The notes: generated from the letters alone by a model not told the origin. Shown: positions 21,601-48,940, numbered from the stretch's first letter. The stretch is 64,000 nt of DNA from an uncultured bacterium (GCA_963754845.1 CAVWHE010000006.1:15035-79034), one strand, 5' to 3'. Made by a program: numbers and translations.

Positions 21601-22727
21601 AAGTATGAAGTGCAACACTTTAAAATTTCGAGTTGAAACGTTGTTTTGGTGGTAAAAAAGGTCATCTGCATCCTGCCGCTCCTTTCTGTTTCACATCAAT
21701 TCCCGCGTGTATTTCGCGGGGCGTATAAAACCCCAAACAGGCGAGTGGAATATTGTTTATGAGGTCAGCAACCTCGTCAAGCCGCTCCTGTGTTATATGT
21801 GCTTCATCGACCTTAAAGGGTAAGAAGCGCCGGATACGCTTGTGTACATTTTCAACGGACCCTTTTTGCCATGGGGCTCCCGGATCGCAAAAGTACGTTG
21901 ATATACCCAAGTTTTTTGTTATCTGCCCATGGAGGGTGAACTCTGAACCGTTATCGAACGTTATGCTCTTGACACCGAGAGTCTTGGCGAGATTTTCCAT
22001 GGAGTCTATAATCATTTGTGATCTTTTTGAACAATTCTTCGTGAGCATGATCATTCTGCTTTTTCTGTCTATAAGAGTGAGTACGTTGCTTGACAGACTC
22101 CCAGAATTAAAGAAAAGATCGCCCTCAAGATGTCCGAGCTGGTCGCGTTTTTCGATATCCTTTGGTCTGTCATGGATCGAAACACGGTCGGGTATACTCG
22201 TTAATGGCTTTCGCGCTCTCAACACGCCTCGCTTCGGTCGCTTTTGCGGCAAGAACGTATAGAGTCCTCGCTCAATGCCGTCACTGCTGTAAATCCACGC
22301 ATAGACCGCCTCTTTGGTTATAGCTTCATTGGCTTTCTCCATCGACCAACGTCCAGCGATTGTTCCAGGAGACCAACCTTGCTTGAGCTTTCCCTCGACA
22401 TACTCGGTAAATCCCTTGATACGTACTGCTTTGTAGCCGTGATGCGCCTTTCGTTTATCCGTGAGCTCCTTCCTGGGCGCGCTGCGGATAATGATAAAAA
22501 CCTTGCTCGTTGCTATTTCTTCTCAACTCCCTACTGATCGTTGATGGCGCTCTTTCCAGACTTCGAGCTATGAAGCGAGCTGATTGGCCGCTGTTGTGAA
22601 CTTAAAAAATCTTTGCTCTTTCTGCCTGCGAAATTTGTGTATACTTTCTCATGCAACACCTTTTTCCTGTTGGATTTTTTGCATATAAAATAATTATATA
22701 ACAGGATAGGTGTTGCACTTCAACTTA
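21601..22727 (-). mobile_element. IS30-family insertion sequence, decayed
   Basis: The terminal inverted repeats are AAGTATGAAGTGCAACAC (21601-21618) and GTGTTGCACTTCAACTT (22710-22726). They enclose a 1.1-kb element that encodes an interrupted IS30-type DDE transposase. Confidence 0.75.
21662..22652 (-). pseudogene. IS30-family transposase, interrupted by an in-frame TAA and a frameshift
   Basis: The catalytic part is intact in ORF 21662..22342 (HLEGDL...TFDNGSEF...PWQKGSVEN). The N-terminal HTH part, read from ATG 22652, is MRKYTQISQAERAKIF*VHNSGQSARFIARSLERAPSTISRELRRNS. It then shifts frame before ...KQGWSPGTIAGRWSMEKANEAITKEAVYAWIY. The span is 991 nt, which is not divisible by 3. Confidence 0.8.
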
Positions 22728-27693: not shown

Positions 27694-27694
27694 T

Positions 27695-28930: not shown

Positions 28931-28933
28931 CGC

Positions 28934-30166
28934 ATGCAACTAACCGTCATTGTAAAAAGCTCCCTGAGAACGATTTTTCACCATACGGGACGTTCGCTTT
29001 TGACGGTACTAGGTATTATGATTGGCATTGCGGCGATTATCATAACATTTGCTATTGGTCGCGGCGCCGAAGAGCGCGTGAAAGGCCAGATTATGTGGAT
29101 GGGCGAAGGGGCCTGCTACATCGTTTCCGGCAATGTTATCACCCGCGGAGCTGCTCGCGCCGCCCTCTTCAAACCCGTACGATTAACCGTCGACGACATG
29201 GACGCCATTGTTCGTCAGGTAGCCGGGATCAAGGAGATATCGCGGAGCACATACACGCTTGAATTGATCGAGTACGAAGGACAGGCGACACGCGATCGCG
29301 TACTGGGCACTGATGCCAACATTCTCAAGATCAACAGAAATAAGCTCCGCCAGGGAACAACGTTCACACAGCAGCACGTGCTCAACAGGGCAAATGTTGC
29401 TATCATTGGACACAAGACCGCCGAAAAACTTTTCAGCAGCGCGTCGCCACTTGAAAAAACCATTCGCATCAGTGGCTACCCTTTTGTCGTCATCGGCGTC
29501 ATTGAGCACCAGGAGCATTTTTTTGGTCCTGACGATCCCAATGCACGCGTTTTTGTGCCCTTCACCGTCGCCAAAAAATATTTCAGCAAAAAAAATGAAT
29601 CAGAGGACGATCTCAATGCCATAGCTTTTAATTTTGATGCGAAAGTCCCGTCAGACGCTCCCTTGAGAAAAATACGACGCATCCTACGCTCTCGCCACGG
29701 CCTGAACGAAGGAGAGGAGGATGATTTCACCATCTTTGATCAGGAGTCGATCAAGAAGACCGCCGAGGACGCCATGAGAGTAATCAAGCTTCTTGGCCTC
29801 ATCGCAGCATCCATTTCCCTCATTGTCGGTGGCATCGGGGTCATGAACATTATGCTCGTTTCCGTGCAAGAACGCCGGCAGGAAATAGGCCTTCGTCTTG
29901 CCCTCGGGGCCACGCAGACGCTCGTGCGTCTGCAATTTCTTTGCGAAGCGGTCATTGTGTGCGTGCTCGGCGGCCTCATCGGCACACTTATGGGCCCGGT
30001 ACTACTTTTTATTCTTACGTGCATGACGAAGCTACCGAGTACCATCGAAGTGACGCCTCTTGTTGTTTCCCTTGCCGTTACCATTATAACAGGCGTATTC
30101 TTTGGCTATTATCCAGCACGATCAGCGGCGTTACTGAGCCCTCTTGATGCCCTCCTTGAACGGTGA
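28934..30166 (+). CDS. MacB/LolE-type ABC permease (FtsX family) 2, paralog of the preceding gene
   Basis: 410 aa, colinear with the previous permease (ISLIVGGIGVMNIMLVSVQERRQEIGLRLALGAT; FFGYYPARSAALLSPLDAL). Confidence 0.85.
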   Translation: MQLTVIVKSSLRTIFHHTGRSLLTVLGIMIGIAAIIITFAIGRGAEERVKGQIMWMGEGACYIVSGNVITRGAARAALFKPVRLTVDDMDAIVRQVAGIKEISRSTYTLELIEYEGQATRDRVLGTDANILKINRNKLRQGTTFTQQHVLNRANVAIIGHKTAEKLFSSASPLEKTIRISGYPFVVIGVIEHQEHFFGPDDPNARVFVPFTVAKKYFSKKNESEDDLNAIAFNFDAKVPSDAPLRKIRRILRSRHGLNEGEEDDFTIFDQESIKKTAEDAMRVIKLLGLIAASISLIVGGIGVMNIMLVSVQERRQEIGLRLALGATQTLVRLQFLCEAVIVCVLGGLIGTLMGPVLLFILTCMTKLPSTIEVTPLVVSLAVTIITGVFFGYYPARSAALLSPLDALLER

Positions 30167-30169
30167 TGT

Positions 30170-30880
30170 ATGGCACTTTTGTACATGCGCAACATTACTA
30201 AAACGTTCGTCACAGGCGGAGTTCCCCTGACCGTCCTCAAGGACGTCAACCTCACCATCGAGCGCGGCGAACTTCTTGCTATCACGGGACCTTCTGGCTC
30301 GGGCAAATCGACGCTCATGCATCTCATAGGATGTCTTGATACAGCAACATCAGGTACGTATACACTCGACAACAAAAATATTTCGGCATTATCGATGCGC
30401 GAGCTTGCACGCATTCGCAACGAACACATAGGTTTTGTTTTTCAAAAGTTTTTTCTCCTTTCTGATATGTGCGCCCTTGATAACGTGGCCCTCCCGCAGC
30501 TCTATGCCGGCGCAAGTGAAAAAGAAGCTCATGAAAAGGCGCGCATCCAGCTTGAGCGTTTGGGGCTCGGCCAACGCCTCACGTACTATCCCAATCAGCT
30601 TTCAGGAGGTCAGCAACAGCGCGTTGCCATCGCCCGAGCTCTCGTTAACGACCCCGACATCATCTTGGCTGACGAACCAACTGGCAACCTTGACTCGGCA
30701 ACAGGAGCGACAATTGTTAATACATTTCTTGATCTCAACGAACATCAGAATGTAACCATCATCATAGTGACACACGATCCTGGACTTGCTCACAAAACCA
30801 AACGCATCATCAGCCTCTTTGACGGCTCCATTGTTGAAGATACAAAATTTCCAAAAGCAGCGATGCCAGACGAGCCGTGA
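30170..30880 (+). CDS. ABC transporter ATP-binding protein (MacB/LolD type)
   Basis: It carries Walker [10 protein letters not shown], the signature [14 protein letters not shown] and Walker [12 protein letters not shown]. The H-loop is VTHD. Confidence 0.9.
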
Positions 30881-31141: not shown

Positions 31142-32587
31142 TTGCAGAAGGATCTATTGGTGAATTACATACTTAGACGTGTTTTGTTGTGTACCATAAT
31201 TTTCACGTGTTCGCCGTCTTTTTATGCTATGGAGCCAGGTGGTGAGACACCGCTTTGCGCAGCAGTTCGAGATGGCAACAAGGAAACGGTTGTTCAATTG
31301 CTTAATGACGGAGCTAACATAAAAGCGACAGATAACGATGGTAACCACCCTCTCCACTGGGCTTGCGCGTACGGCCATACGGAAATCGTTGAACTACTTC
31401 TTGACAGGGGGGCTAACATAGAAGCAGCAGATGGTTATGGGCGCCATGCTCTTCACCTGGCTTGCGAGTACGGCCATACGGAAACCGTCGAACTGCTTCT
31501 TGACAGGGGGGCTAACAGAGAAGCGACAAGGGCGAATGGTGCACGACCCCTCCACGGGGCATGCTGGGCGGGCAACGCGGAAATCGTTGAACTACTTCTT
31601 GCCAGGGGGGCTAACAGAGAAGCGACAGGTAGGAATGGTGCACGACCCCTCCACTGGGCATGCTGGGCGGGCAACGCGGAAATCGCTGGACTACTTCTTG
31701 CCAGAGGTGCTGACATAGAAGCGACAGGTAGGAATGGTGCACGACCCCTCCACTGGGCGTGCGGGAAAGGCCATCCTCTCCATATGGCGTGCGGGAAAGG
31801 CCATACGGAAATCGTCGAACTACTTCTTGCCAGGGGAGCTAACATAGAAGCAGCAGATAACGATGGGTGCTCTGCTCTTCACATGGCTTGCGCGTACGGC
31901 CATACGGAAACCGTCGAACTGCTTCTTGACAGGGGGGCTGACATAGAAGCAGCAGATAACGATGGTAACCGCCCTCTCCACTGTGCCTCCAAGGTAGGGG
32001 CGGAAGATATTGTTGACCTTCTCCTGCTCTATGGAGCTCATGAGGATGCCCGCGACAATGAAGGAAGAACTGCTGCCGACCTTACTTTATATCTTGAGAA
32101 ATATATCCTCATTCGCGACCGCGTCACGCGCATGCGCACGTTTTTACAGCATCTGGCCAAAGCCAATCTGGAAGAAGCAAAGAGTGCATTCAGGGATCTC
32201 GGTCAGCCTGGCACACATTACAATCTTCATGGCAGGGATGGCAGGACACCACTGCATTATGCCGTACGTAACGCCGGCAGATGCGAGAGCATCAGCAACA
32301 GCTGGGTAAAGCTTGTTAGCGCTCTTATTGATCGAGCGGTCGATGTTAATGTCCGCGATTGTGATGGCAATACGCCGCTTCATTACGCCGTGTTTAATGA
32401 AAATGCTCTCCTTACCCGTTTTCTCGTTGCACGCGGTGCACGCGTTGATGTGCAAAACCGTGAAGGTATTTCACCTATGTCGGCAAATGCAAGTTTTTTC
32501 ATGAATTATGTCTTCGGCTCAGCACGTGCCATTAAAGATGTTGAAAGTTCGAGCTCCTTGAGTGGTGCCGGTGCTCACCAAAAATAA
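31142..32587 (+). CDS. Ankyrin-repeat protein with N-terminal signal-like segment
   Basis: At least 9 ANK repeats (G..PLH.A...GH.E.VELLL.RGAN.EA). The N-terminus reads LLCTIIFTCSPSFYA. A non-ANK C-terminal third also contains two more ANK units. The ORF start as listed is a TTG codon. Confidence 0.85.
   Translation: MQKDLLVNYILRRVLLCTIIFTCSPSFYAMEPGGETPLCAAVRDGNKETVVQLLNDGANIKATDNDGNHPLHWACAYGHTEIVELLLDRGANIEAADGYGRHALHLACEYGHTETVELLLDRGANREATRANGARPLHGACWAGNAEIVELLLARGANREATGRNGARPLHWACWAGNAEIAGLLLARGADIEATGRNGARPLHWACGKGHPLHMACGKGHTEIVELLLARGANIEAADNDGCSALHMACAYGHTETVELLLDRGADIEAADNDGNRPLHCASKVGAEDIVDLLLLYGAHEDARDNEGRTAADLTLYLEKYILIRDRVTRMRTFLQHLAKANLEEAKSAFRDLGQPGTHYNLHGRDGRTPLHYAVRNAGRCESISNSWVKLVSALIDRAVDVNVRDCDGNTPLHYAVFNENALLTRFLVARGARVDVQNREGISPMSANASFFMNYVFGSARAIKDVESSSSLSGAGAHQK
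31408..31850 (+). repeat. Near-identical 99-bp tandem repeats encoding ANK units, including one truncated/duplicated unit
   Basis: The peptide units GANREATRANGARPLHGACWAGNAEIVELLLAR, GANREATGRNGARPLHWACWAGNAEIAGLLLAR and GADIEATGRNGARPLHWACGKGH are almost identical at the DNA level. An out-of-register 27-nt duplication (PLHWACGKGH PLHMACGKGH) is also present. Confidence 0.7.
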
Positions 32588-36210: not shown

Positions 36211-37062
36211 TAGGCCCTGTTGACTTTTTATCGGAGCCATATGCAAGTCCCCACAAAAAGCAGAAAGGCCCGGTAATTGCGCAGCTTTTTATCGAAACGA
36301 GAAAAAATGCGTCTGTACTGCTTAATCTTTGAAAAGAAACACTCGATGACAGACCTCTCCTTGTAGACGTGTTTGTCGTATTCCACAACTTGCGTTCGAT
36401 TACTTTTGCCTGGGATTACCGGGCAACAATTTTGAGCCCTTATTTGCCTGCGAAAAGGGTCCGAGTCATACCCCATGTCACCGATGATATGCGATTCAGA
36501 ATCTCCCTTAATAAGCTCCTCTCCTTGGGTGATGTCGGCAACTTGGCCTGGTGTAATAATGAATTTAAGAGGATTTCCGAGAGCATCAACCTTAGCATGG
36601 ACCTTTGTAGTGAAGCCCCCCTTGCTTCGCCCAAGACCCTCTTCTGCTTGTTTGCCGTGGCCAGCTGCGCACGGATGTGCTCTGACTATTGTTGCGTCAA
36701 CAGACAGATACTCCTGGTCAGGGTCGTGTATACAAAAGGCAAAAAGTTTCTCCCATACGCCCTTTTTGCTCCAGGCATCGAATCTTTTGTATACACTGTT
36801 CCACGCGCCGTATCGTTCTGGCAACTCCCTCCATTGCGCTCCAGTTCGCATAATCCAGTACACTGCCTCAACGAAGTTCCTGAGCCTTTCTTCGCTGACG
36901 ACGTAAATTTTGGCGTCTTCTTTCAGGAAGGCAAACATTTTTTCCCACGCATCACTTGTGATATACTTTCCCTGCATGATAGCTCCTGTTCGAGTGTTCC
37001 ATTTTTTTGGATTGGAGTTATCATGCAAAAAAATCAGCGTTTTGAAAAGTCAACAGGGCCTA
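36211..37062 (-). mobile_element. IS5-family (IS427/IS1031-like size class) insertion sequence, apparently intact
   Basis: Perfect 18-bp terminal inverted repeats are present: TAGGCCCTGTTGACTTTT (36211-36228) and AAAAGTCAACAGGGCCTA (37045-37062). They enclose an 852-bp element with one uninterrupted DDE transposase ORF. Confidence 0.85.
36228..36977 (-). CDS. IS5-family DDE transposase
   Basis: The sequence reads MQGKYITSDAWEKMFAFLKE...YWIMRTGAQWRELPERYGAWNSVYKRFDAWSKKGVWEKLF...LSVDATIVRAH...GRSKGGFTTKVHA.VDALGNP...GDMGYDSD...YKERSVIECFFSKIKQYRRIFSRFDK. This is the typical IS5/IS427 pattern. The start is placed at ATG 36977 inside ORF 36228..37028. Confidence 0.9.
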   Translation of the reverse strand: MQGKYITSDAWEKMFAFLKEDAKIYVVSEERLRNFVEAVYWIMRTGAQWRELPERYGAWNSVYKRFDAWSKKGVWEKLFAFCIHDPDQEYLSVDATIVRAHPCAAGHGKQAEEGLGRSKGGFTTKVHAKVDALGNPLKFIITPGQVADITQGEELIKGDSESHIIGDMGYDSDPFRRQIRAQNCCPVIPGKSNRTQVVEYDKHVYKERSVIECFFSKIKQYRRIFSRFDKKLRNYRAFLLFVGTCIWLR

Positions 37063-40746: not shown

Positions 40747-42591
40747 ATGAATCACGAGTCTGCCGAGAGTTGCTGCGCACGCGTGGCGCAGGAAGTGCGC
40801 GACGTTGTTGGCGCCATCGGCATTGTTTTTGGTGACATAGGAACGAGTCCACTCTACGCCCTCGTCGCCATTTTTTCCCTTCTGCCAGTTTCTCTTGATA
40901 ATGTCGTCGGAACCGTTTCTCTCATAATCTGGACACTCATTTTTGTTGTTTCGGTCCAGTATGCCTGGCTTGCCATGAGCCTCAGCAAGAAAGGCGAGGG
41001 CGGCACCGTTGTGCTTCGTGAGATCATAAAATCACTCCTGAGTTCGAAGACGGCCGTAACTTCCATAACGCTTATGTCCTTCGTGGGGATAGCGCTCTTT
41101 ATGGGCGATGGCGTCATAACGCCAGCAATCAGCATCCTGGGGGCCGTTGAAGGTCTTCGTCTCATACCCATTTTTTCAACGCTCAGCACGGCAACCCTTG
41201 TTGCCATTGGCGCTGCCATCGCCGTTGCCCTTTTTTGCCTTCAGCGCCGCGGCGTCGAAGGCGTCTCAGGGATGTTCGGACCAATTATGGTCGTATGGTT
41301 TTGTGTCATAGGCGTCTCCGGCTTTGCCGAACTCATACATGAACCAAGCATACTTTTGGCCTTTAATCCCTACTACGGTATCAAGTGCCTCTTCACCAAT
41401 GGACTGGCGACGTCGGCCTTCATCTTGTCAGGTATCATACTGTGTGCAACGGGGGGCGAGGCGCTCTACGCCGACATGGGTCACATGGGACGCAGGCCCA
41501 TCAGGCAAGCCTGGGTCATCGTGCTCATATCACTCGTGCTTAACTACATGGGACAGGGAGCGTTTTTGCTCGCCCATCCGGAAGCCAACCTCATCTTTCA
41601 CGAAATGTTTTATCACCAGGTTCCGTGGCTCTACGTACCCTTCCTCGGCCTCTGTGTTGTCGCCGCCGTTATAGCTTCGCAGGCCATGATCAGTGGCGTC
41701 TTTGCCGTGGTTTATCAGGGTATAACAACCGGCATGCTTCCACGTTTCAAAGTTGATTACACATCGCAACGTTTTCACGCCCAAGTCTACGTCGGTTTTA
41801 TTAACTGGCTTCTTTTGGGCGCCGTCGTTTTCATGATGATCCGCTTTAAAAGTGTCGAAAACCTCGCAGCTGCTTACGGCATGGCAGTGAGCGGAACAAT
41901 GCTCATAACGAGTACGTTCATCACTCTCATCTTTCGGCTTCGCCGACAACCGTACCGGCAGGCTTTGGCAACCGTGCTTATCGTGATTAACTTCGTTTTT
42001 GTATGTACGTCGCTCACAAAACTCACCCAGGGCGGAATCTATTCGCTCATTATTGCCCTTGTTCCACTGAGCATCATTGTCATCTACTACTTTGGCCGCA
42101 AAAAGATGCACCGCCTCGTCGAATCAGTGCCGCTGACGAAGTTTCTCGAAGTATACAAATCAGCATATGCGCGTGCAACCAAGATCGGCGGCACCGCTGT
42201 CTTTTTTATGCGTGATTCCCGCGCCGTGCAACCCTATCTTGTACAAACAATGGTCGACAACGGCATCATTTACGATGACAACATCATCGTCTCAGTTGTG
42301 CAAGACGACACGCCCTACGGCATCGGTGGGTCCTTCAAAGAGAAGCTCGCCGACGGGCTGCGCGTCTTTGAGATCCATTGCGGATACATGGAGGTACCCA
42401 ACATTGAAAAGATACTTCACAACGCCGGTATTGACATCAAGGTCATCTTTTTCGGCCTCGACGAAATTGTGACACGCAACCCGGTGTGGCGAATTTTTTC
42501 GATTATTAAACGCCTCGCGCCGACCTTTGTGCGCTTTCACAAATTACCTCCCAATAAAATACACGGCGTCGTGACACTCATCAACATGTAA
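40747..42591 (+). CDS. kup: KUP/HAK/KT potassium uptake protein
   Basis: 614 aa. The N-terminal signature is GIVFGDIGTSPLYAL. Twelve hydrophobic segments follow, then a cytoplasmic C-terminal domain. Confidence 0.9.
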   Translation: MNHESAESCCARVAQEVRDVVGAIGIVFGDIGTSPLYALVAIFSLLPVSLDNVVGTVSLIIWTLIFVVSVQYAWLAMSLSKKGEGGTVVLREIIKSLLSSKTAVTSITLMSFVGIALFMGDGVITPAISILGAVEGLRLIPIFSTLSTATLVAIGAAIAVALFCLQRRGVEGVSGMFGPIMVVWFCVIGVSGFAELIHEPSILLAFNPYYGIKCLFTNGLATSAFILSGIILCATGGEALYADMGHMGRRPIRQAWVIVLISLVLNYMGQGAFLLAHPEANLIFHEMFYHQVPWLYVPFLGLCVVAAVIASQAMISGVFAVVYQGITTGMLPRFKVDYTSQRFHAQVYVGFINWLLLGAVVFMMIRFKSVENLAAAYGMAVSGTMLITSTFITLIFRLRRQPYRQALATVLIVINFVFVCTSLTKLTQGGIYSLIIALVPLSIIVIYYFGRKKMHRLVESVPLTKFLEVYKSAYARATKIGGTAVFFMRDSRAVQPYLVQTMVDNGIIYDDNIIVSVVQDDTPYGIGGSFKEKLADGLRVFEIHCGYMEVPNIEKILHNAGIDIKVIFFGLDEIVTRNPVWRIFSIIKRLAPTFVRFHKLPPNKIHGVVTLINM

Positions 42592-42613: not shown

Positions 42614-43582
42614 TCAACGGACGGGGAGCCTCTGCTGGACGATGCTTTCTTCGATGAGCGTGGCGACTTGCGTGTGACCTGCTCGTCTGGCAATCTGGAG
42701 TGGAGTCTGATTATAACGGTCGGTACTCGACACCAGTATCTTGGCATAGCCTTCAAGAAGGATGCTCACGATACTGGCAAATCCAAGACGAGCCGCCAGA
42801 TGAAGGGCTGACGTACCGTCCTTGTCAACTATTGTTGGCAAGACCAATTCCTTTGCAAGAATGGCTCTCACAACCCGTGGTCCCTTCTCAAAAACGGCCT
42901 GATGGAGCGCCGGCCACTCGTCGTTGTCGCGCATATTGATTTCCGTATCGCGATCTTCGACAATTTTGCACGCTACGTCCCAGTTATGTTTTTCGATGGC
43001 GAGCATAAGTGCCGTCTTGCCCTCGCTGCTTTTGGCGTTGACGCAGACCCTTGCAAGCCACGGGTGCTCCTGCCGCAAAAGCTCGGTAACGGCGGCTAGT
43101 GAGTTATGAAAGGCAGCATAGTGAAGCGCTGATTGTTGGTACGTATCGACGGCATCGAGATCGATGTCAGGATGGTCCAAAAGAGCTCTAACGATGGCAG
43201 CCGTCTCCGGAGTTCGCGTTCCGCATACAAGATGAAGTGGCGTTTGTCCCACGTTGTTCTTCTTGTTAACGTCTATCCCGGGTGCTTCCAGAAGCGCACG
43301 CACGACGTCCAAAGACCTGAGGGCAAGACCACACTGCATGGCGGCAACATGGAGCGCCGTCATGCACTCCTCGCTCGTCATAACACCATTGACGTCGGCC
43401 TCGCCAGCGGCAATAAGCTGCCGAACGCGTCCACAATCCTTTTTTTCGACAGCGCTAAAAAACTCCTCTTGGGGTGTCATGGGAGCGGCAGCACATGCCG
43501 TGGAACACGTGACAAACAGAGTGAAAACGCAGGCCACAACAGATGGTAATAAACCGGGAAAACACGTGACATACTTTTTCAT
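42614..43582 (-). CDS. Ankyrin-repeat protein with signal peptide
   Basis: The ORF runs 42614..43627. The likely start is ATG 43582 (MKKYVTCFPGLLPSVVACVFTLFVTCSTACAAAP). About 8 ANK repeats are present (TALHVAA, TPLHLVC, SALHYAA, TALMLAI, PALHQAV, SALHLAA, TPLQIAR). Confidence 0.85.
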   Translation of the reverse strand: MKKYVTCFPGLLPSVVACVFTLFVTCSTACAAAPMTPQEEFFSAVEKKDCGRVRQLIAAGEADVNGVMTSEECMTALHVAAMQCGLALRSLDVVRALLEAPGIDVNKKNNVGQTPLHLVCGTRTPETAAIVRALLDHPDIDLDAVDTYQQSALHYAAFHNSLAAVTELLRQEHPWLARVCVNAKSSEGKTALMLAIEKHNWDVACKIVEDRDTEINMRDNDEWPALHQAVFEKGPRVVRAILAKELVLPTIVDKDGTSALHLAARLGFASIVSILLEGYAKILVSSTDRYNQTPLQIARRAGHTQVATLIEESIVQQRLPVR

Positions 43583-43689
43583 CGAAGACCTCGAAAAGCA
43601 CATTGACCAAACAACAACAAAAAGCACACACGATACAACCGCCTATCACAAGACCGCCAACGCACCGGCTGACCGCGCACTGACCACAA

Positions 43690-44409
43690 TCACCGAAGAC
43701 CACCCGTACCATCAAAAAAGGCGATTGGTTGAGCCGGCTGCCGCGACTTTGAAGTACCCCCCGTGTAATTTTCACCGGAGCACGCATCTGATGACACATG
43801 CACGGGACCTGGCTGCACTGGCCTACTTTCGATACGGCATCGATGGCTTATTGCATAGTCCTTCTTCTGACACTCGCATGCATCTTCATCGACAGCGCGG
43901 CGCACGCGTTTGGGGCTGCGCACAGGTTTCTGTTGATCTTCTCCACCACTCGCACCGTCGCCTCCACCCATCTCGGCTAAGGTCCTTTTCCCGCCGGCAA
44001 GACCGTGCGAACACTCGTCGTCAGAAGTACCTGCCCATGACTGTGCTTGAGTACAGTCGTGGTTGGCACGAAACGCGAAACCACTGGAGACACTTTCCTC
44101 GCCAGGCATTATTTCTGGCTCAGCGTCACGCTGACTGCCTAATATGCTTTGATGCAAAAATGGCGGCCCATCAAGAGGTTGGTGGAGAAACGATTGCTTA
44201 TAAAGCTCGGGAAATCTCTCTAAAAGCACCATATGCATGGCACGATTGATGCGCTCCGCACGATTGTCGGCGGCCGCGTCGGCTCTTCTGCTGGCGGCGT
44301 TGTCCTTGCGCGGCCCACCACCGGCCAGGATAGTACCGAAAGCTATTGTCATACACACAACAGCCACATACGATAGTTTAATGTTTAAGTGCGGTAATAT
44401 TTGCTTCAT
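43690..44409 (-). CDS. Hypothetical membrane-anchored, largely disordered acidic protein
   Basis: Its ATG (44409-44407) overlaps the TGA (44408-44406) of the upstream zinc-finger gene as ATGA. The N-terminal TM segment is LSYVAVVCMTIAFGTILAGG. A basic patch SPKRVRRAV is present. I recognised no family. Confidence 0.5.
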   Translation of the reverse strand: MKQILPHLNIKLSYVAVVCMTIAFGTILAGGGPRKDNAASRRADAAADNRAERINRAMHMVLLERFPELYKQSFLHQPLDGPPFLHQSILGSQRDAEPEIMPGEESVSSGFAFRANHDCTQAQSWAGTSDDECSHGLAGGKRTLAEMGGGDGASGGEDQQKPVRSPKRVRRAVDEDACECQKKDYAISHRCRIESRPVQPGPVHVSSDACSGENYTGGTSKSRQPAQPIAFFDGTGGLR

Positions 44410-45200
44410 GGCTTGTTGTCCCCTCGGTACGTAAACTTACTATGAACACATCGCCTGTGGTAGGTAAGTCCACCACAACGAGCAGCCACAAAGCCGCACA
44501 ATTCACATTTAAGCGATCTCTGCTGTACGTGCATCCTGAGGACATGAGTTGCAAGGTCTGACGCGTACGCAGAGGCGTACGAACATTGATTGCATACATG
44601 CCGCTTAACACCTTGGTGAACCGACGAAACGTGTTGTGCAAGATGACCCTTGTACGCTGTTGTAAAGTTGCACTGAGTACACGCAAAGGGCCTTTCTCCC
44701 GTGTGGGTCCGCCTGTGTTCAAGAATTCTTCGGTTCTTGCTAGTCACATAGCCACACTCACTGCAGGCAAACATTCGGCCGGGCAGTGGTACATCGTGTC
44801 CCTCATGGGGGTTGCTCTTGACAGCACATGCAGACAAGTTTGCACCGAGATCGACCCCACCGTCCTGGCACCATGGTATAAAGCCAGCAGGAGCATCGTC
44901 ACCATCGAGCCGACCAGTAGATTCTGACGAGGGTGTTGCTGCGGCAGCAGTAGTAGTATGTGCCGAGACGGCCGCGATGGTACTTCCAGGCAAGGCGTTT
45001 ATATAACCATCACCAGTAGGCAGACGTAAAGGCCCAAGGGGATCTACACCATCGTCACTAACGAAGTCAAACATCGAGTTTCCAAATAAATTCCACGATT
45101 CATGAGCGCGCGGAGGTTCAAAGCTCGCATGTGCACCGTAAGCGGCACCGCACAAAAAACATACAAGAAACGACCTCAAAACTTTTTCGATTATCATCAT
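44406..45200 (-). CDS. Signal-peptide protein with four tandem eukaryote-type C2H2 zinc fingers
   Basis: The ORF runs 44406..45299. The likely start is ATGATG at 45200 (MMIIEKVLRSFLVCFLCGAAYGAHA|S). The fingers lie at nt 44439-44771: FACSECGYVTSKNRRILEHRRTH-TGERPF-ACTQCNFTTAYKGHLAQHVSSVH..HVCNQCSYASAYASDLATHVLRMH..LKCELCGFVAARCGGLTYHRRCVH. All four show C-x2-C-x12-H-x3/4-H spacing. Confidence 0.75.
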   Translation of the reverse strand: MMIIEKVLRSFLVCFLCGAAYGAHASFEPPRAHESWNLFGNSMFDFVSDDGVDPLGPLRLPTGDGYINALPGSTIAAVSAHTTTAAAATPSSESTGRLDGDDAPAGFIPWCQDGGVDLGANLSACAVKSNPHEGHDVPLPGRMFACSECGYVTSKNRRILEHRRTHTGERPFACTQCNFTTAYKGHLAQHVSSVHQGVKRHVCNQCSYASAYASDLATHVLRMHVQQRSLKCELCGFVAARCGGLTYHRRCVHSKFTYRGDNKP

Positions 45201-45500
45201 GGCACAACTTCCTCGCCAAAAAACGTATTTCAAACATGCGCTAGCACCTACAACATCTCTCCAGGAGCTGTAGATACACAACGGTAACAAGCTTAACACA
45301 TTTAGTGCAGCGAGAAAACAGGCGAGTAATTATTAACTAAAACTGTGATAATTTTTTCAAAAATAGTGTGCAAGACGTGATATGCACCACACATAGATGG
45401 CACGAAACCCCCCGCTAGAATTTGTTAGTGAGTACTGAAAGTTCAGCATATGGGTGCCGTGAAAAGCACGTTGTTCTCGGGGGCGCGACCGAGCTTCGTG

Positions 45501-46820
45501 CTAACTTGTGCGCGGGATGAAAACAAGCGGTACGCTTTTAAGGTCAAACGTCGCGCGCAGCACGTTGTCGAAAAATCCCAGCTGACCGTCGCCGAACCAT
45601 CGTGGTTGGTTGACAATCATGAGGAGGGTCGGCGGAGCCGTTTTGACCTGTCGCACACGAAAGAGCTTGAGCAGCTGTGTCTTGTGGTACAGTGGCCGAC
45701 GCGTGAGAGCCTCTTTGCACGCGAACGTGAGCTCATGATCGTTGAGTTTTTGTTCGTATCTTTTCCACACTTTTTCAACAAGGGGCATTATTTTGCCGAT
45801 GTTTTTCCCTGTAGTGCATGAAATAGAAAGATGCTCGACCTTGTCGATGAGATGCGCGTATCCTTCAAGGTCGCGGGCAAGATCGGCCTGCGTCGATTGG
45901 TCGGCCAGGTCGTCCTTATTGAAAAGAATGATGAGCGCTTTGTGAAGGTCAGCAAAGGCGTGAAAGGCGAGCTTGAGTTCCTGGTCGGCAAGCTGTCCTT
46001 CGTGGGCGTCGATCATGAGAATGACAATGTGAGCATCATCAAGTGCCCTCAACGAGCTCTTGACCATCATAGTCTCAAGTCCCTCGTGGACTGAGCGCTT
46101 TCGACGAATACCGGGAGTATCGGTTACGACAATGTCGTGCTTGCAAAAAGCAACGCGTTCGGAAATTGACTCGCGCGTCGTTCCCGGCACGTCTGAAACG
46201 ATGGCGCGCTCTTTGTTGACAAGGAGGTTGAGGAGCGATGACTTGCCGACATTGGGCTTGCCGAGGAGGACGACGTTGTATGCCGCCTTTTCTTCGTCGT
46301 GCGCGTGCCCTGCTGTTTGGGCTAGCTGTTCGACGATGAGTTCGAGCACATCGCCGACGCCCGTACCGTGCTGGCACGACACATCAATTGCCTCCTTAAA
46401 ACCGAGTCGAGCGCACTCAAAGGCGTTTTCAGCCGAGGTCTTAACGTCGCTTTTATTGATAATGAGAATGACATTTTTGCGCTCTTTGTGCAGAAGGCGG
46501 GCGATCGCGCGATCTTCGGCAAGAGGGCCAACGGAGCCGTCGACAACAAAGAGGATAACGTCGGCATGCTCAATCATAGAAAGTGCTCTTTGGCGCGTTT
46601 TTTCAACAAGATCATCGTGAGCTTTCGTGAGACTGACGCCGCCCGTGTCGATGAGCTCAAAGCAGGCGTCCTGCCAGTACACCGTATCGGATACGCAGTC
46701 GCGCGTTACACCGTGACAATCGAACGTGATGGCTTTGACTGACGTCGAAAGACGATTAAAGAGGCTCGATTTGCCGACGTTTGTTCTTCCTGCTATGACG
46801 ACCTTCGCACGTTTTTTCAT
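45501..46820 (-). CDS. der: Ribosome-associated GTPase Der/EngA
   Basis: Two GTPase domains are present (GRTNVGKSSLFNRL ... DTGG ... NKSD, and GKPNVGKSSLLNLL ... DTPG ... NKDD). A KH-like C-terminus follows. The start is placed at ATG 46820 (MKKRAKVVIAG) inside ORF 45501..46916. Confidence 0.9.
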   Translation of the reverse strand: MKKRAKVVIAGRTNVGKSSLFNRLSTSVKAITFDCHGVTRDCVSDTVYWQDACFELIDTGGVSLTKAHDDLVEKTRQRALSMIEHADVILFVVDGSVGPLAEDRAIARLLHKERKNVILIINKSDVKTSAENAFECARLGFKEAIDVSCQHGTGVGDVLELIVEQLAQTAGHAHDEEKAAYNVVLLGKPNVGKSSLLNLLVNKERAIVSDVPGTTRESISERVAFCKHDIVVTDTPGIRRKRSVHEGLETMMVKSSLRALDDAHIVILMIDAHEGQLADQELKLAFHAFADLHKALIILFNKDDLADQSTQADLARDLEGYAHLIDKVEHLSISCTTGKNIGKIMPLVEKVWKRYEQKLNDHELTFACKEALTRRPLYHKTQLLKLFRVRQVKTAPPTLLMIVNQPRWFGDGQLGFFDNVLRATFDLKSVPLVFIPRTS

Positions 46821-46830
46821 GGGATCCTTT

Positions 46831-47568
46831 TTACTGGGAGCCTTCGTACACGATACCTGGAAAGGAGCGCACAAGAGCGCACGCCTTGGGCCACACGCTG
46901 GCGTCTGAAATATCAACTGTCATACGGCGCGCCGGACGCTGTGACGGTGTTTTTGTAGAGGTGCGGTACGCACGCGGCGGTGCCGCTTCTTCGTGCTCGC
47001 GTCCGCACGAAGTTTGTATCACCGGTGGTGAAACAGTACGCGGAAGAGCTGCCTCGCGAGCCTCGTGTTCCTGAACTGTTGCCGTCGGCGACGTCGGTAC
47101 GATGTCGGGAACAAAGAGAGGAATGAGGCGCGCACCCGACCCGAAGATATCGCTAAGTGCCGCCGCCCACGATGCCGTTTCCCTCACAAGAAGTTCTTCA
47201 AAGAAAGCAAATTGTTGCGCAAAAGCGGCAGTGACTTTTTTGTTGTGCTCATCGTATGATCGGTACTGTCCGTGACCAAAAATTGAGCTCAAAAGTGTAT
47301 TGTCAAGCGCTGCAATTTTATCAACAAACGTGCGCCAAAGTCTGAGCCCGGCATCGGCAGGCGTGATAGCGGTAGATACACCCACAGTGCGGATGCTGCG
47401 CTTCGAGTCCTCACTCCCAGTTCGTCGGTGCTCAACGGCGTCGCCTGTATTTCTGCGCAGCTCATCGGTCTGTCGCTGACACGAGGCGATCTTCAGAAGT
47501 GCGGCACGTGGGCGAGGGGGCCTGAGGGATGTGTGAAGGAAAATGCTGCGTTGCCTGCGGGGTCGCAC
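46831..47568 (-). CDS. dnaX: dnaX C-terminal (tau-like) region, in the +1 frame relative to the central dnaX ORF
   Basis: It contains LWRTFVDKIAALDNTLLSSIFGHGQYRSYDEHNKKVTAAFAQQFAFFEELL...LSDIFGSGARLIPLFV. This is the W..fl..i....l.s.l.....d...l.l.f pattern of the DnaX C-terminal domain. It overlaps the end of the central ORF by 107 nt. Its stop lies 8 nt before the der start. Confidence 0.5.
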   Translation of the reverse strand: MRPRRQRSIFLHTSLRPPRPRAALLKIASCQRQTDELRRNTGDAVEHRRTGSEDSKRSIRTVGVSTAITPADAGLRLWRTFVDKIAALDNTLLSSIFGHGQYRSYDEHNKKVTAAFAQQFAFFEELLVRETASWAAALSDIFGSGARLIPLFVPDIVPTSPTATVQEHEAREAALPRTVSPPVIQTSCGREHEEAAPPRAYRTSTKTPSQRPARRMTVDISDASVWPKACALVRSFPGIVYEGSQ

Positions 47569-48514
47569 ATTCTAGCGCCTGCGATGCCTCCACGCCGGAA
47601 ACGCGACAGCCATCGTGGCAGAGGCTCACGAGGAGCATTTCAAGCACAAGATGTTTGCTCGACGTTCGTGCAAACGCCCGTTCGTGGGCATACAGTGTTT
47701 CAAGAATCGTCATGAGACGCTCATGGGTGTATTTTTGTGCAAGGTTCTTGAGCGCGATAGCATGTACATGAGCAACGGGAACCTCAAGCCCGTGATGTGA
47801 CCATACAAGAAAGCGCACAAATTCCATGGACCTCTTCCACACGTAATCAGCGTCGAAGGTTTCAAAGGCGATGCTTCTCAAGAGTTCGACGAGGCGTTGC
47901 TCATTGCGATCGGCGAGGATACTAAAAAGGGCAACCACGTAATCGTCGCTCATGTGTCCGAGGACAGCAAGCACCGTATCAACCGTTATGCGCCCTTTGG
48001 CAAAGCGTACGCGCTCGAGCATGTTGAGGGCGTCGCGTACCGAGCCCTGTGATTCACGTGCGACAATGTCAAGGGCCGGCTCATCCGCAGCTATCGATTC
48101 ATTGGCGCACACGACCGCAAGATGTTTAACAAGCTCGCGCGTGCCGACGGACCCAAAACATACCTGAAAGCACCGCGATCGTACCGTTTCGATGATCTTG
48201 TCCTGGTCCGTCGTTGCTAAAATAAAGACCACCGCATCCGGCGGTTCTTCCAATATCTTAAGCATCGCATTAAAGGCCGCCTTGCTGAGCATGTGAGCTT
48301 CGTCGATCAGATAAATTTTTTTGCGGCCCATGAGCGGCAAAAACGAGGCTGAATCGATGATTTGGCGAACATTATCAACACCCGTATGTGAAGCGGCATC
48401 AATTTCGATAAAATCAGGATGTTTACCGGCTTCCATAGCCGCACATGATGGACATGCACGACAGGGCAGAGTACTGTTTTTAGGATCCTTTTGAAAGTGG
48501 ACAATTCCTGGCAA
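47462..48514 (-). CDS. dnaX: DNA polymerase III subunit gamma/tau, central part
   Basis: It carries a Zn module CRACPSC, then DFIEIDAASHTGVDNVRQII, Walker B KIYLIDEAHMLS and the sensor block FNAMLKILEEPP..VVFILATT. The codon at 48514 directly follows an in-frame TAA. Confidence 0.85.
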   Translation of the reverse strand: MPGIVHFQKDPKNSTLPCRACPSCAAMEAGKHPDFIEIDAASHTGVDNVRQIIDSASFLPLMGRKKIYLIDEAHMLSKAAFNAMLKILEEPPDAVVFILATTDQDKIIETVRSRCFQVCFGSVGTRELVKHLAVVCANESIAADEPALDIVARESQGSVRDALNMLERVRFAKGRITVDTVLAVLGHMSDDYVVALFSILADRNEQRLVELLRSIAFETFDADYVWKRSMEFVRFLVWSHHGLEVPVAHVHAIALKNLAQKYTHERLMTILETLYAHERAFARTSSKHLVLEMLLVSLCHDGCRVSGVEASQALECATPQATQHFPSHIPQAPSPTCRTSEDRLVSATDR

Positions 48515-48736
48515 TTAATGTGCCGCGGCAAAAATACGAGCCATTGACGTTTTTCCCGTGCCCCGTTGTCCCCAAAAAAGATACACGGGAAAAAGATGAC
48601 CGCGATACAAACTATTTTTGAGCATCTTCGCCGACAATTCCTGGCCAATGATCTGGTCAAAGTTTTGCGCCCGCCACTTACGTGCCAGGTTGAGCTGGAT
48701 TTCATTCATGGCAGTACCCATTACAAAACACGACAA
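48515..48736 (-). CDS. dnaX: dnaX N-terminal fragment (73 codons) ending at an in-frame TAA
   Basis: It reads LARKWRAQNFDQIIGQELSAKMLKNSLYRGHLFPVYLFWGQRGTGKTSMARIFAAAH*. This is the standard DnaX N-terminus with Walker A. The TAA lies at 48517-48515 and the same frame continues as LPGIVHFQ.... Confidence 0.7.
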   Translation of the reverse strand: MSCFVMGTAMNEIQLNLARKWRAQNFDQIIGQELSAKMLKNSLYRGHLFPVYLFWGQRGTGKTSMARIFAAAH

Positions 48737-48940
48737 ACGCGATCATCACGCCGCACGAGCCCATAACTTAAGACACGCAGCCAATTACAATCAACGACGT
48801 CACGCTCGGCTACATACAGTGTCATAACAAGAAGGGGAAAATATACAAGAATCATTGCCCCTGCTGCTTTCTTTCGAACCTGACAGATTAAACAACTATT
48901 CTTTATATAGTTTCCCCAATTTTTTAATTGCTGCTCATCC

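Follow-up and report, generated by a model that had tools for sequence, protein, structure and literature searches.

Tandem classical C2H2 zinc fingers are the most abundant DNA-binding module in eukaryotes, and many eukaryotic C2H2 fingers bind RNA or protein. To our knowledge, tandem fingers of this kind are usually considered absent from bacteria. The zinc-finger proteins of the Ros/MucR type have a single finger, set in a larger (roughly 58-aa) globular fold with other spacing, and regulate bacterial genes from within the cytoplasm. In Magnaporthe oryzae, the effector MoHTR2, a signal peptide joined to a C2H2 finger, is localised in the nucleus of rice (PMC12488382). Two reviews of nucleomodulins (PMC7819608, PMC7232420), searched by term, name none of the C2H2 type, and zinc fingers are mentioned there only for host proteins and as a MYND motif. 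The terms zinc finger and C2H2 are also absent from the main text of a preprint on the effectors of the genus Legionella and from the main text of an atlas of L. pneumophila effector domains. No paper on eukaryotic-like zf-C2H2 proteins in bacteria was found in the literature searched; nor was there a report of a bacterial classical poly-C2H2 effector in that literature or, by full-text search, a paper linking Dependentiae with C2H2, which is no proof of absence.

The only members of the phylum Dependentiae of which we know are parasites of protists. Those in culture are intracellular (PMC6561590). In Chromulinavorax, signal peptides are present on 44% of CDS and on 78% of the 98 ankyrin proteins, and the signal-peptide proteins have been proposed as effectors (PMC6561590).

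Here we describe a gene whose product, P0001, has a Sec-type signal-like N-terminus, then an acidic spacer of 117 aa that is predicted to be disordered, and then four C2H2 fingers in tandem. It lies in a stretch of 64,000 nucleotides from an uncultured bacterium (GCA_963754845.1, CAVWHE010000006.1:15035-79034), the whole of which was analysed and is called the window below. Read from its ATG, the protein is MMIIEKVLRSFLVCFLCGAAYGAHA, and the identical copies in NCBI, ENA and Logan form a singleton cluster. The ATG at 45200 is the start chosen in public gene calls, and the (C)GAGG motif that precedes it is also found before rplU, pepA, kup, the neighbouring ORFan and the ankyrin gene. A longer reading from a GTG at 45299 is mechanically possible and was set aside, that GTG having no Shine-Dalgarno-like motif. 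The gene has no introns. Coordinates of the gene, its parts and its neighbours are given in the table.

Table. Features of the four-finger locus, in coordinates of the window
Feature	Position	Strand	Basis or remark
Four-finger gene (P0001), product 264 aa, ATG start	44406..45200	(-)	ORF + translation
Shine-Dalgarno-like GAGGAA, 8 nt 5' of ATG	45209..45214	(-)	positions -14..-9
Sec-type signal-like N-terminus, residues 1-25	45126..45200	(-)	sequence heuristics
Spacer, residues 26-142, acidic (pI 4.3), Thr/Ala/Ser-rich, predicted disordered	44775..45125	(-)	
Finger 1, aa 146-166, H-x3-H, CSECGYVTSKNRRILEHRRTH	44703..44765	(-)	pLDDT >90, predicted beta-beta-alpha
Finger 2, aa 174-195, H-x4-H, CTQCNFTTAYKGHLAQHVSSVH	44616..44681	(-)	motif, AF2
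Finger 3, aa 203-224, H-x4-H, CNQCSYASAYASDLATHVLRMH	44529..44594	(-)	motif, AF2, Pfam
Finger 4, aa 232-253, H-x4-H, CELCGFVAARCGGLTYHRRCVH	44442..44507	(-)	motif, AF2
ORFan downstream of P0001, 239 aa	43690..44409	(-)	ORF + translation
Ankyrin-repeat protein, signal-peptide-bearing, 322 aa, third cluster gene	42614..43582	(-)	Ank_2 1.1e-34
Der/EngA GTPase, upstream flank, taxonomic anchor	45501..46823	(-)	Pfam
Kup potassium transporter, downstream flank	40747..42591	(+)	PF02705 K_trans, L001 gene table

The initial annotation had read in this gene a Sec-type signal-like N-terminus, a Thr/Ala/Ser-rich spacer and four consecutive C-x2-C-x12-H-x3/4-H units, the first two joined by a TGERPF linker, and each of these elements was recovered. 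The four units stand in one frame with exact spacing, the linker reads H-TGERPFA-C, and the spacer contains ..AHTTTAAAATPSSESTG.. as described. When all six frames of the window were scanned for C-x2-4-C-x12-H-x3-5-H, 8 matches were found, 4 of them the fingers of P0001, against a mean of 0.52 and a maximum of 3 in 50 shuffles, so that the C2H2 pattern is not due to chance. The profile check gave the same assignment: zf-C2H2 scored 29.5 bits against a Pfam cut-off of 25.2, zf-H2C2_2 51.4 bits (cut-off 40) and zf-H2C2_5 44.7 bits (27), the best-scoring stretch for the last being finger 3. Beyond the C2H2 families, Pfam returned two marginal matches below cut-off.

All 16 of the 16 zinc ligands are intact, as are the hydrophobic core positions of all four fingers; in each finger the core aromatic residue, Tyr or Phe, is at +2 after the second Cys (C-x2-C-x-[YF]) and helix position 4 is Ile or Leu. 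Each of the three linkers has the canonical 7-residue length, and one of them (TGERPFA) matches the TGEKP consensus, linkers 2 and 3 being QGVKRHV and VQQRSLK. The residues at helix positions -1, 2, 3 and 6 are K, R, R, E in finger 1, Y, G, H, Q in finger 2, Y, S, D, T in finger 3 and R, G, G, Y in finger 4; fingers that contact bases do not usually have Tyr at -1, as two of these do, or Gly at 2 and 3, as finger 4 does. AF2 predicts for each finger a two-strand hairpin and a helix with pLDDT mostly >90, and the top Foldseek matches of the model are the DNA-bound proteins CTCF, Aart, ZBTB7A, PRDM9 and ZFP568 (probability 1.0, E about 1e-7). Against PDB sequences, phmmer returned ZFP568 at 6e-40 and CTCF at 9e-30. 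The finger domain is basic (pI 9.55), and a simple regex for the classical NLS (K-K/R-x-K/R) had no match in P0001. By their spacing, profile scores, predicted fold and core, the four units can be classed as C2H2 fingers of the classical Kruppel/TFIIIA type.

The signal-like character of the N-terminus was borne out by heuristics: basic residues (K6 and R9) are followed by a hydrophobic core and by A-H-A preceding S26, and the AF2 model has a helix at residues 2-23. The maximum 10-residue Kyte-Doolittle hydropathy of P0001 is 2.56; the outer-membrane protein OEP reaches 3.10, and the cytoplasmic controls Der, L21, LAP and RuvA lie at 0.70-1.52. The N-terminus can thus be called signal-like, resembling the leader of the window's own OEP, unlike the cytoplasmic controls. 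From residue 21 to residue 140 the mean pLDDT per 10-residue block is 41-56. Among 1.84 billion representative proteins, the first 143 aa matched only P0001 itself and, marginally and over the hydrophobic leader, one other sequence (E 6.6e-4); the spacer has no detectable relatives there.

The start codon of the ORFan overlaps the stop codon of P0001 by 4 bp (ATGA). In the ORFan product there is a hydrophobic helix at the N-terminus, and the basic motif SPKRVRRAVDED (SPKRVRR / PKRVRR) is SV40-like. The product matched nothing but itself in the protein database, Pfam returned no match, and its single-sequence AF2 model is mostly disordered (mean pLDDT 48.5). The ankyrin protein, as called in the L001 gene table, starts at ATG 43582 with the N-terminus MKKYVTCFPGLLPSVVACVFTLFVTCSTACA. 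A signal-like hydrophobic N-terminal segment is therefore common to all three genes of the cluster (P0001, ORFan and ankyrin gene). Scans for promoter and terminator consensus sequences around the cluster gave counts not above those in shuffles.

The locus is embedded in bacterial genes. On the upstream side are a bacterial SRP RNA, tRNAs, S2, DnaX and Der, with the nearest bacterial gene within 300 bp, and on the downstream side are Kup, L21 (rplU) and leucyl aminopeptidase (LAP, pepA). The order S2-DnaX-Der is common to the window and a related Dependentiae contig, and the named homologues of Der, at 53-57% identity, are almost all from Candidatus Dependentiae, Babeliales or TM6, which places the genome in Candidatus Dependentiae (TM6). 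The window has three ankyrin genes, and from these and the phylum we infer an intracellular lifestyle for the source bacterium. The GC (0.506) and GC3 (0.456) of the P0001 gene are both inside the range of the window. A Logan contig from run ERR11594402, built by a different assembler, is identical (100%) over 9,213 bp that take in the gene and both flanks, running from within Der through P0001, the ORFan, the ankyrin gene, Kup and L21 to LAP. The contig is accordingly neither eukaryotic nor chimeric, and it was a eukaryotic or chimeric contig that the initial annotation had named as fatal to its reading. Remnants of mobile elements are present in the window, namely an IS5 transposase (36228-37028) and an rve fragment (21662-22342). 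The dnaX gene is broken by one stop codon and one frameshift, which are either genome decay or assembly errors, and for this reason the intact reading frame of P0001 is by itself no proof of function.

No relatives of P0001 were found across 185,579 species-representative genomes, and P0001 is absent from the syntenic site in all three related Der loci that were read. Apart from its own copies, P0001 has 71 matches, of which 70 are named as eukaryotic or look so; the exception is P0054, on contig L007. The finger protein thus does not belong to an old bacterial family, in agreement with the origin first proposed for it, and these comparisons support the horizontal acquisition of a eukaryote-like C2H2 module by a Dependentiae genome. 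Of the three results that the initial annotation had named as fatal to its reading, none came up. The best HSPs to giant-virus, vertebrate, arthropod and protist-like sequences all score 60-80 bits at 30-40% identity, so no single donor can be named, and a giant virus is as admissible a source as a eukaryote. A tree built on repeats of 28 aa was judged unreliable.

The same design was found on two other contigs. Contig L007 (GC about 38%) has a RecF that scores 187.9 bits against the TIGR00611 cut-off of 172, and was on that account counted as bacterial. Its four complete genes stand in tandem, and each encodes a conserved signal peptide and 1-6 C2H2 fingers that match the motif, the linkers being of the TGEKP form; a bipartite-NLS-like segment (KRP...AKRxR) is present in three of the four. 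A fifth paralogue, cut off at the contig end, has the signal and the NLS-like segment and no finger. The second case is a gene on the tailed-phage contig L055, whose product combines a signal peptide with a pair of C2H2 fingers and has PLKKRRF at its C-terminus. Eleven further loci from a metagenome scan seeded with P0054 (L010-L020) have finger ORFs that are fragmented or differently organised and look eukaryotic, and they were not used. As judged from sequence, the fusion of a signal peptide to C2H2 fingers has arisen, or been retained, on two unrelated prokaryotic contigs, and its occurrence in the four paralogues of L007 and in L055 suggests that P0001 is one example of a recurrent, overlooked class of effectors.

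The reading that we prefer, and hold with middling confidence, is that P0001 is a domesticated, horizontally acquired poly-C2H2 module joined to a bacterial Sec signal, and acts as a nucleomodulin in the host nucleus. The initial annotation had put the protein forward as a candidate of this kind; as a candidate it stands, on the strength of the fingers, the bacterial context and the signal-like N-terminus, and the nucleomodulin role itself is what we infer from these. For such a role the signal would have to be cleaved, and the protein would have to reach the host, enter its nucleus, bind DNA and affect transcription. The pre-protein would be exported unfolded via Sec and its signal cut after A-H-A (residue 25), and the mature protein of roughly 239 aa would leave the bacterium by the route that the phylum uses for its signal-peptide ankyrin proteins. 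In the reducing, zinc-containing cytoplasm of the host the four fingers would fold, and the basic finger domain (pI 9.6) would bring the protein to nucleic acid, most likely the nuclear DNA of the protist. There P0001 would mimic a host transcription factor, and its acidic disordered N-terminal region may serve as an activation or interaction domain. P0001 is probably co-expressed with the ORFan and its PKRVRR motif, and perhaps also with the ankyrin gene.

Several points weigh against this nucleomodulin reading. P0001 stands alone, no orthologue having been found. The regex for a classical NLS had no match in it, and with one TGEKP-like linker among three and the unusual residues at the specificity positions the array could also bind RNA or protein. 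The signal peptide was judged by heuristics, and the broken dnaX of the same window lessens the weight of an intact reading frame. With its 12 Cys, the mature protein would have to pass through the oxidising periplasm; a DsbD homologue was found in a relative. For Dependentiae, we know of no translocation route across the outer membrane into the host.

The first point is also the starting point of an alternative that we regard as rather unlikely, in which P0001 is an evolutionary by-product: a fragment captured from a eukaryote or giant virus that came to lie behind a hydrophobic leader, and now either has no function or stays in the envelope or periplasm, perhaps binding zinc there, and does not reach the host. 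In favour of this are the singleton status of P0001 and its absence from the syntenic position in the three related loci read, its neighbours (an ORFan and mobile-element remnants, the IS5 transposase and the rve fragment), the disrupted dnaX of the same window, and a codon-usage fit of -1.248, which is toward the low end of the window, where several genes are lower still. Against it, every zinc ligand and hydrophobic core position has been retained, the gene has a start with a proper Shine-Dalgarno motif, and there is coupling between its stop and the start of the ORFan. The GC and GC3 of the gene are already genome-like, which argues against a very recent arrival, and the fusion of signal peptide and C2H2 fingers recurs in two unrelated prokaryotic contigs, one of them with four paralogues.

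Unlikely, too, is that P0001 is delivered to the host as an effector whose C2H2 array binds cytoplasmic RNA or protein instead of nuclear DNA. With one TGEKP-like linker and unusual specificity residues, the array could bind RNA or protein: two of its three linkers are not TGEKP-like, Tyr is found at -1 twice and finger 4 has Gly, Gly, and the regex found no classical NLS in the protein. Chromulinavorax, moreover, remodels mitochondria and membranes, and the nucleus is not its obvious target (PMC6561590). Yet the top matches of P0001 in both structure and sequence are DNA-bound poly-finger proteins and its finger domain is strongly basic; in addition, the L007 genes have bipartite-NLS-like segments, the phage protein has PLKKRRF, and the ORFan next to P0001, probably co-transcribed with it, has PKRVRR.

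That P0001 regulates the bacterium's own genome, its N-terminus being no export signal or translation beginning at an internal Met, is quite improbable. Bacteria do use zinc-finger regulators, of which Ros/MucR is an example, and the N-terminus of P0001 was judged by heuristics; but its positive-inside n-region, hydrophobic core and A-x-A site are what a Sec signal typically has and are like those of the OEP leader, and an SD-like motif precedes the first ATG. Moreover, P0001 has no similarity to Ros/MucR, the searches brought up no family of such regulators in bacteria, and elsewhere the same architecture is accompanied by eukaryotic NLS-like motifs. An artefact of assembly or binning, in which a eukaryotic or viral fragment was mis-joined to a bacterial contig, has a negligible chance of being the explanation, for although the source is a metagenome-assembled genome and the stop codon and frameshift in dnaX may be assembly errors, there are bacterial genes no more than 300 bp upstream, the ORFan overlaps the end of the P0001 gene by 4 bp, composition shows no break, the gene is intronless with bacterial translation signals, and the Logan contig from another assembler is identical from Der through LAP.

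If P0001 does act as a nucleomodulin and reaches the host nucleus, it would be a new DNA-binding module among bacterial nucleomodulins and would give a first concrete handle on host reprogramming by Dependentiae. The recognition rules of C2H2 fingers are partly predictable, so that target sites in the host would be predictable and testable, as they are for TAL effectors. We tentatively extend this to a wider proposal, itself doubtful at present, that bacteria living inside protists (Dependentiae and at least one other low-GC lineage), and the phages of these bacteria, may deploy Sec-exported poly-C2H2 mimics of transcription factors in the host nucleus, where they would parallel TAL effectors on the scaffold of the eukaryotic finger. 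Lineages would have acquired the module in repeated captures, from hosts or from co-infecting giant viruses, and tandem arrays of paralogues in some lineages would diversify the fingers toward different host loci. The likeness of P0001 to giant-virus finger proteins is relevant to gene exchange between parasites that share protist hosts.

Among known proteins, P0001 shares with eukaryotic Kruppel-type factors (ZFP568, CTCF, PRDM9, ZBTB7A) the finger spacing, the predicted beta-beta-alpha fold, the 7-residue linkers, one of them TGERP, and a basic domain. It differs from them in being encoded in a bacterial operon behind a putative Sec signal, in having no KRAB, BTB or SCAN domain, and in sequence, identity being only 30-40%. 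Its core aromatic residue, at +2, is that of the zf-H2C2_5/REST-like subtype, whereas the canonical position in Kruppel-type fingers is +4. This C-x2-C-x-[YF]-[AVT]-[AST] subtype is shared with poly-C2H2 proteins on giant-virus MAG contigs in IMG/VR, whose genes are likewise intronless and come from a parasite of protists. One of them (GVMAG-S-1091232-186, L021:5992-7050) is the best single-HSP match to P0001 among the sequences compared (80 bits, 36% identity, 105 aa). A protein of this type was considered as the donor, and the similarity is too low to name one. These giant-virus proteins have 5-16 fingers, compared with four in P0001, and among the IMG/VR finger ORFs listed none has a signal-like N-terminus except the phage pair L055/L056, a lack that fits synthesis in the cytoplasm of the host.

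The Ros/MucR proteins share with P0001 a bacterial origin and a Cys2His2 zinc site, which in Ros/MucR is DNA-binding. Membership of that family was rejected, since P0001 has no ROS_MUCR Pfam match at E<=0.1 and has four tandem classical units instead, so that the separation from the Ros/MucR type drawn in the initial annotation holds. The fungal effectors MoHTR1 and MoHTR2 have the same succession of a signal peptide and a C2H2 domain, and are secreted and host-nuclear (PMC12488382). They differ in being made by a fungus and exported by the eukaryotic secretory pathway, and MoHTR2 has 110 aa and one finger domain (PMC12488382); no homology to P0001 is implied past the finger fold.

With the TAL effectors of Xanthomonas and Ralstonia, HsvG/HsvB, the Ehrlichia TRPs and AnkA, as treated in the two reviews (PMC7819608, PMC7232420), P0001 would share a proposed logic, in which a modular DNA-binding protein of a bacterium serves as a transcription factor in the host nucleus. 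Those proteins are built of 34-aa TAL repeats, tandem repeats or ankyrin repeats and are delivered by T3SS, T1SS or T4SS. P0001 is not a TAL effector, having no TAL repeats, and the likeness would be functional only. Within its own phylum, P0001 resembles the ankyrin proteins of Chromulinavorax and Babela in the apparent fusion of a Sec signal to a eukaryote-type domain; their domain is a protein-interaction repeat, and P0001, by contrast, has a C2H2 array of what appears to be the nucleic-acid-binding type.

The protein under study divides into a signal-like N-terminus, a Thr/Ala/Ser-rich spacer and a finger domain of four C2H2 units, as the initial annotation had described it. A six-frame regular-expression search of the whole 64-kb window finds eight C2H2 motifs, against a shuffle mean of 0.52, and half of these are the consecutive in-frame units of this one protein; the translation gives the same exact spacing. 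Neighbouring units are separated in each case by 7 residues. The linkers are of the consensus (TGEKP) type in one instance only, and the first two fingers are joined by TGERPFA, which bears out the TGERP linker reported earlier. The sequence scores above the curated Pfam cut-offs for zf-H2C2_2 (51.4 against 40), zf-H2C2_5 (44.7 against 27) and zf-C2H2 (29.5 against 25.2), so the expected zf-C2H2 match is significant and is joined by two further families. The same Pfam search gave no Ros/MucR match, and identity with the Ros/MucR finger was rejected on that ground.

Coordinates of the zinc-finger protein, its gene neighbourhood and other features (window nucleotides unless a residue range or another contig is given)
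Feature	Position	Strand	Description
Zinc-finger gene	44406..45200	-	ATG start, 264 aa
Signal-like N-terminus	residues 1-25		MMIIEKVLRSFLVCFLCGAAYGAHA
Spacer	residues 26-142		Acidic, pI 4.3; Thr/Ala/Ser-rich
Finger domain	residues 143-264		Basic, pI 9.55; four C2H2 units
C2H2 units	aa 146-166, 174-195, 203-224, 232-253		Exact C-x2-C-x12-H-x3/4-H spacing
239-aa ORFan	43690-44409	-	N-terminal hydrophobic helix; SV40-like basic motif SPKRVRRAVDED; rest predicted disordered
Ankyrin gene	42614-43582	-	Signal-peptide ankyrin protein
331-aa ORF	43254-44249		Opposite strand, overlaps ORFan; probably spurious
Der/EngA	45501-46823	-	300 bp upstream of zinc-finger gene
dnaX	46831-48709	-	Disrupted
Small SRP RNA, bacterial	48829-48919		Beyond Der
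Logan contig match	37035-46247		100% identical
IS5-family transposase	36228-37028	-	DUF4096 + DDE_Tnp_1
Nine-repeat ankyrin protein	31142-32587	+	Hydrophobic signal-like N-terminus
Pump operon	25142-30880	+	TolC-like OEP, HlyD-family adaptor, two MacB/FtsX permeases, ABC ATPase
rve fragment	21662-22342	-	Integrase core
GC-rich block	10905-12611		Long tandem repeats
1580-aa protein	5495-10237	-	Peripla_BP_6 solute-binding domain at aa 836-1173
Finger-gene array	L007 2424-7070		Tandem paralogues
Finger ORF	L007 6597..7070	-	Reaches contig end
Phage finger protein	L055:5803-6423	+	206 aa
GVMAG finger protein	L021:5992-7050		Best single alignment
RING-like protein	L002:16214-16783	-	189 aa, signal-like N-terminus

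An AlphaFold2 model built from a 19-sequence alignment places a helix at residues 2-23, a low-confidence and probably disordered stretch at residues ~26-140, and four beta-beta-alpha units in which pLDDT mostly exceeds 90. A Foldseek search of the PDB matched the model with probability 1.0 to the DNA-bound fingers of CTCF, Aart, ZBTB7A, PRDM9 and ZFP568, and phmmer against PDB sequences gave 6e-40 for ZFP568 and 9e-30 for CTCF. The fingers are of a subtype with the core aromatic two positions past the second Cys, C-x2-C-x-[YF]-[AVT]-[AST]. Ligand spacing, Pfam scores, the modelled fold and the hydrophobic core together place the domain in the classical C2H2 clan, with zinc and DNA binding predicted.

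The gene is part of a minus-strand run. Beyond Der on the upstream side lie the disrupted dnaX, the small SRP RNA, tRNA-Ser and ribosomal protein S2, and downstream follow in order the ORFan, the ankyrin protein, Kup, L21 and leucyl aminopeptidase. Der homologues are 53-67% identical; those with names (53-57%) belong nearly all to 'Candidatus Dependentiae', 'Candidatus Babeliales' or 'candidate division TM6'. A related JGI contig, which has ATP/ADP translocase (TLC) and ankyrin genes, keeps the S2-DnaX-Der order. These two findings make the genome a Dependentiae MAG. Members of the phylum in culture live as obligate parasites inside protist cells (PMC6561590). The GC content (0.506) and GC3 (0.456) of the zinc-finger gene are within the window's spread. 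GAGGAA stands at -14..-9 before its ATG, and a (C)GAGG motif likewise precedes rplU, pepA, kup, the ORFan and the ankyrin gene; the alternative GTG start at 45299 lacks it. A Logan contig (run ERR11594402), separately assembled with a different assembler from reads that may be those behind the MAG, is identical from inside der through the zinc-finger, ORFan and ankyrin genes to kup, rplU and pepA. With this composition, Shine-Dalgarno-like motif and matching contig the gene looks native. Given also the bacterial flanks, contamination or chimerism is very unlikely, and the contig is taken to be neither eukaryotic nor chimeric.

Several other features of the window were recorded. The dnaX gene is interrupted twice, by an in-frame stop codon following ..RIFAAAH, at a point where related sequences continue ..AAALNCEHL.., and by a frameshift somewhere from aa ~367 to ~418; these lesions are either an assembly indel error or gene decay, and a split dnaX is also present in a related contig (L005). 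Mobile elements have left remnants in this small symbiont-type genome: the rve fragment, and the IS5-family transposase, which is ~5.6 kb away from the ankyrin side of the cluster. In the GC-rich block (GC 0.58-0.62; window ~0.51) the repeats have periods of 133, 301 and 274 nt and are 87-100% identical; the block has no Rfam match, and its ORFs are probably spurious. In the 1580-aa protein the solute-binding domain is the sole recognised part.

The zinc-finger protein is a singleton in a collection of 5.8 billion proteins. The other 71 matches, all but one (P0054, considered below) named or looking eukaryotic, are chiefly vertebrate KRAB-ZNFs, with fewer from arthropod, fungal or protist-like sources, and cover the finger region only, at 23-47% identity. 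No relatives of the N-terminal 143 aa were found among 1.84 billion representative proteins, nor any relative in a scan of one genome per bacterial or archaeal species; the homologues thus do not form an old bacterial family. Three related Dependentiae Der loci (L002, L003/L004 and L005) lack the gene, keeping DnaX-Der with unrelated genes downstream; L002 is a 1.64-Mb MAG chromosome whose Der is 59% identical. The absence from these loci and from the searches marks the zinc-finger, ORFan and ankyrin cluster as a lineage-specific insertion. A 189-aa protein of L002 (OY970257.1, MFD00082.bin.1.38) bears a RING-like Cys/His motif (zf-RING_2 21.8 bits, under the 27.3 cut-off) behind its signal-like N-terminus, and is another fusion of an export signal to a eukaryote-type zinc-binding domain, here in a related Dependentiae MAG.

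A pattern scan of IMG/VR returned 36 contigs with intronless poly-C2H2 proteins of 2-16 fingers, at least seven of them labelled giant-virus MAGs (GVMAG). Among the sequences compared, the best single alignment was to GVMAG-S-1091232-186 (L021; 80 bits, 36% identity over 105 aa), which has the same aromatic-swapped finger subtype. With viral and eukaryotic hits both scoring in the 60-80-bit range, the matches do not tell whether the donor was a host eukaryote or a co-infecting giant virus.

A signal-like N-terminus was absent from the finger proteins of these 36 contigs except in a tailed-phage pair, L055 and L056 (3300031524_000097 and 3300029908_000363), which carry a P22-like portal gene (245 bits). 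Both encode a 206-aa protein in which a signal-like N-terminus is combined with two fingers (zf-C2H2 33.4 bits), connected through HTGERPYKC, and with PLKKRRF at the C-terminus; it may be phage-borne cargo targeting eukaryotes. P0054 lies on a 7-kb JGI contig, L007 (JGI 3300022707, Ga0247389_10017840; GC ~38%), which is bacterial since it begins with a RecF above the TIGR00611 cut-off (187.9 bits against 172). L007 holds a tandem array of paralogous finger genes, also seen in L008: a 374-aa signal-peptide protein is followed by tightly packed same-strand paralogues, the first three genes being 3-14 bp apart. The four complete genes encode one to six motif-matching fingers each with TGEKP linkers; the signal peptide is MKQTTFFSTLLFsCLLxGPVxA|ME in three and divergent in the first, and in three of the four a segment KRP..(about 12 aa)..AKRxR resembles a bipartite NLS. 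A fifth paralogue, cut off by the contig end, has the signal and the NLS-like segment without a finger, and is overlapped by a minus-strand finger-coding ORF. Fingers of L007 and L055/L056 are ~35% identical or less to those of the zinc-finger protein, with nothing common outside them, and these proteins look like parallel solutions, not orthologues. The design of a Sec signal with classical C2H2 fingers, in some cases with an NLS-like segment, is thus a recurrent one among prokaryotes, and this makes it less likely that the window gene is an accident.

In Chromulinavorax destructans, signal peptides are found on 44% of CDS and 78% of 98 ankyrin proteins; such proteins are proposed as secreted host-manipulating factors, and only the Sec system is recognised (PMC6561590). 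All three cluster genes encode a hydrophobic, positively charged N-terminus which, by hydropathy and a small-x-small heuristic, resembles the leader of the TolC-like OEP, unlike the cytoplasmic Der, L21, leucyl aminopeptidase and RuvA. The ORFan is translationally coupled to the zinc-finger gene, its ATG overlapping the stop codon (ATGA), and may act alongside it. The nine-repeat ankyrin gene directly follows the pump operon; as speculation, a MacAB-TolC-type pump is a conceivable route from periplasm to outside for signal-peptide effectors. From the Chromulinavorax proteins and the cluster N-termini we infer that the zinc-finger protein would be exported unfolded by Sec and cleaved after AHA, would reach the host via a putative outer-membrane step, and would there fold around zinc in the cytoplasm; its basic domain would bind nucleic acid, with nuclear DNA the most plausible target. 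An acidic, disordered region before a DNA-binding domain is, speculatively, a layout like that of eukaryotic activators.

The initial annotation's proposal of a nucleomodulin stands as a candidate, having withstood the three checks set for it (on the profile match, the bacterial contig and the range of homologues), and we regard it as an evenly balanced proposition. Among its weak points are the twelve Cys of the mature protein, which must cross the periplasm, the lesions in dnaX within this window, and the lack of an orthologue, so that selection on the gene cannot be measured. The nucleomodulin reading is weak also in that no classical NLS was found in the protein, only one linker is of the consensus type, and base-contacting positions are atypical (Tyr stands at -1 in two of the fingers, and finger 4 has Gly-Gly). 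A capture that is non-functional or retained in the envelope is rather unlikely, and an effector binding RNA or protein in the host cytoplasm is unlikely. A regulator of the bacterium's own genes, beside the signal-like N-terminus, is improbable, and an artefact, beside the identical Logan contig, extremely so.

The interest of the nucleomodulin candidate is in a surprising domain with a well-supported bacterial context and evidence of recurrence, limited by a function that is predicted and by singleton status. In two nucleomodulin reviews (PMC7819608, PMC7232420) the zinc-finger passages retrieved deal solely with host proteins or the MYND motif, and neither the Legionella effector-domain atlas nor a genus-wide effector preprint mentions zinc fingers in its main text. 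A literature search of incomplete coverage found no paper with both 'Dependentiae' and 'C2H2', which is absence of evidence only. As far as could be found in this literature, the DNA-binding module has not previously been associated with bacterial effectors; secreted eukaryote-like effectors and nucleomodulins as such are already known. As treated in passages of the two reviews, TAL effectors, HsvG/HsvB, Ehrlichia TRPs and AnkA, functionally among the nearest counterparts, work on the logic proposed for the zinc-finger protein but differ in fold and delivery route. Among the closest by function is MoHTR2, a fungal effector with the same layout of signal peptide and C2H2 finger, which localises to the rice nucleus (PMC12488382), and the pattern of a signal peptide with a eukaryote-like domain is shared with the Dependentiae ankyrin proteins.
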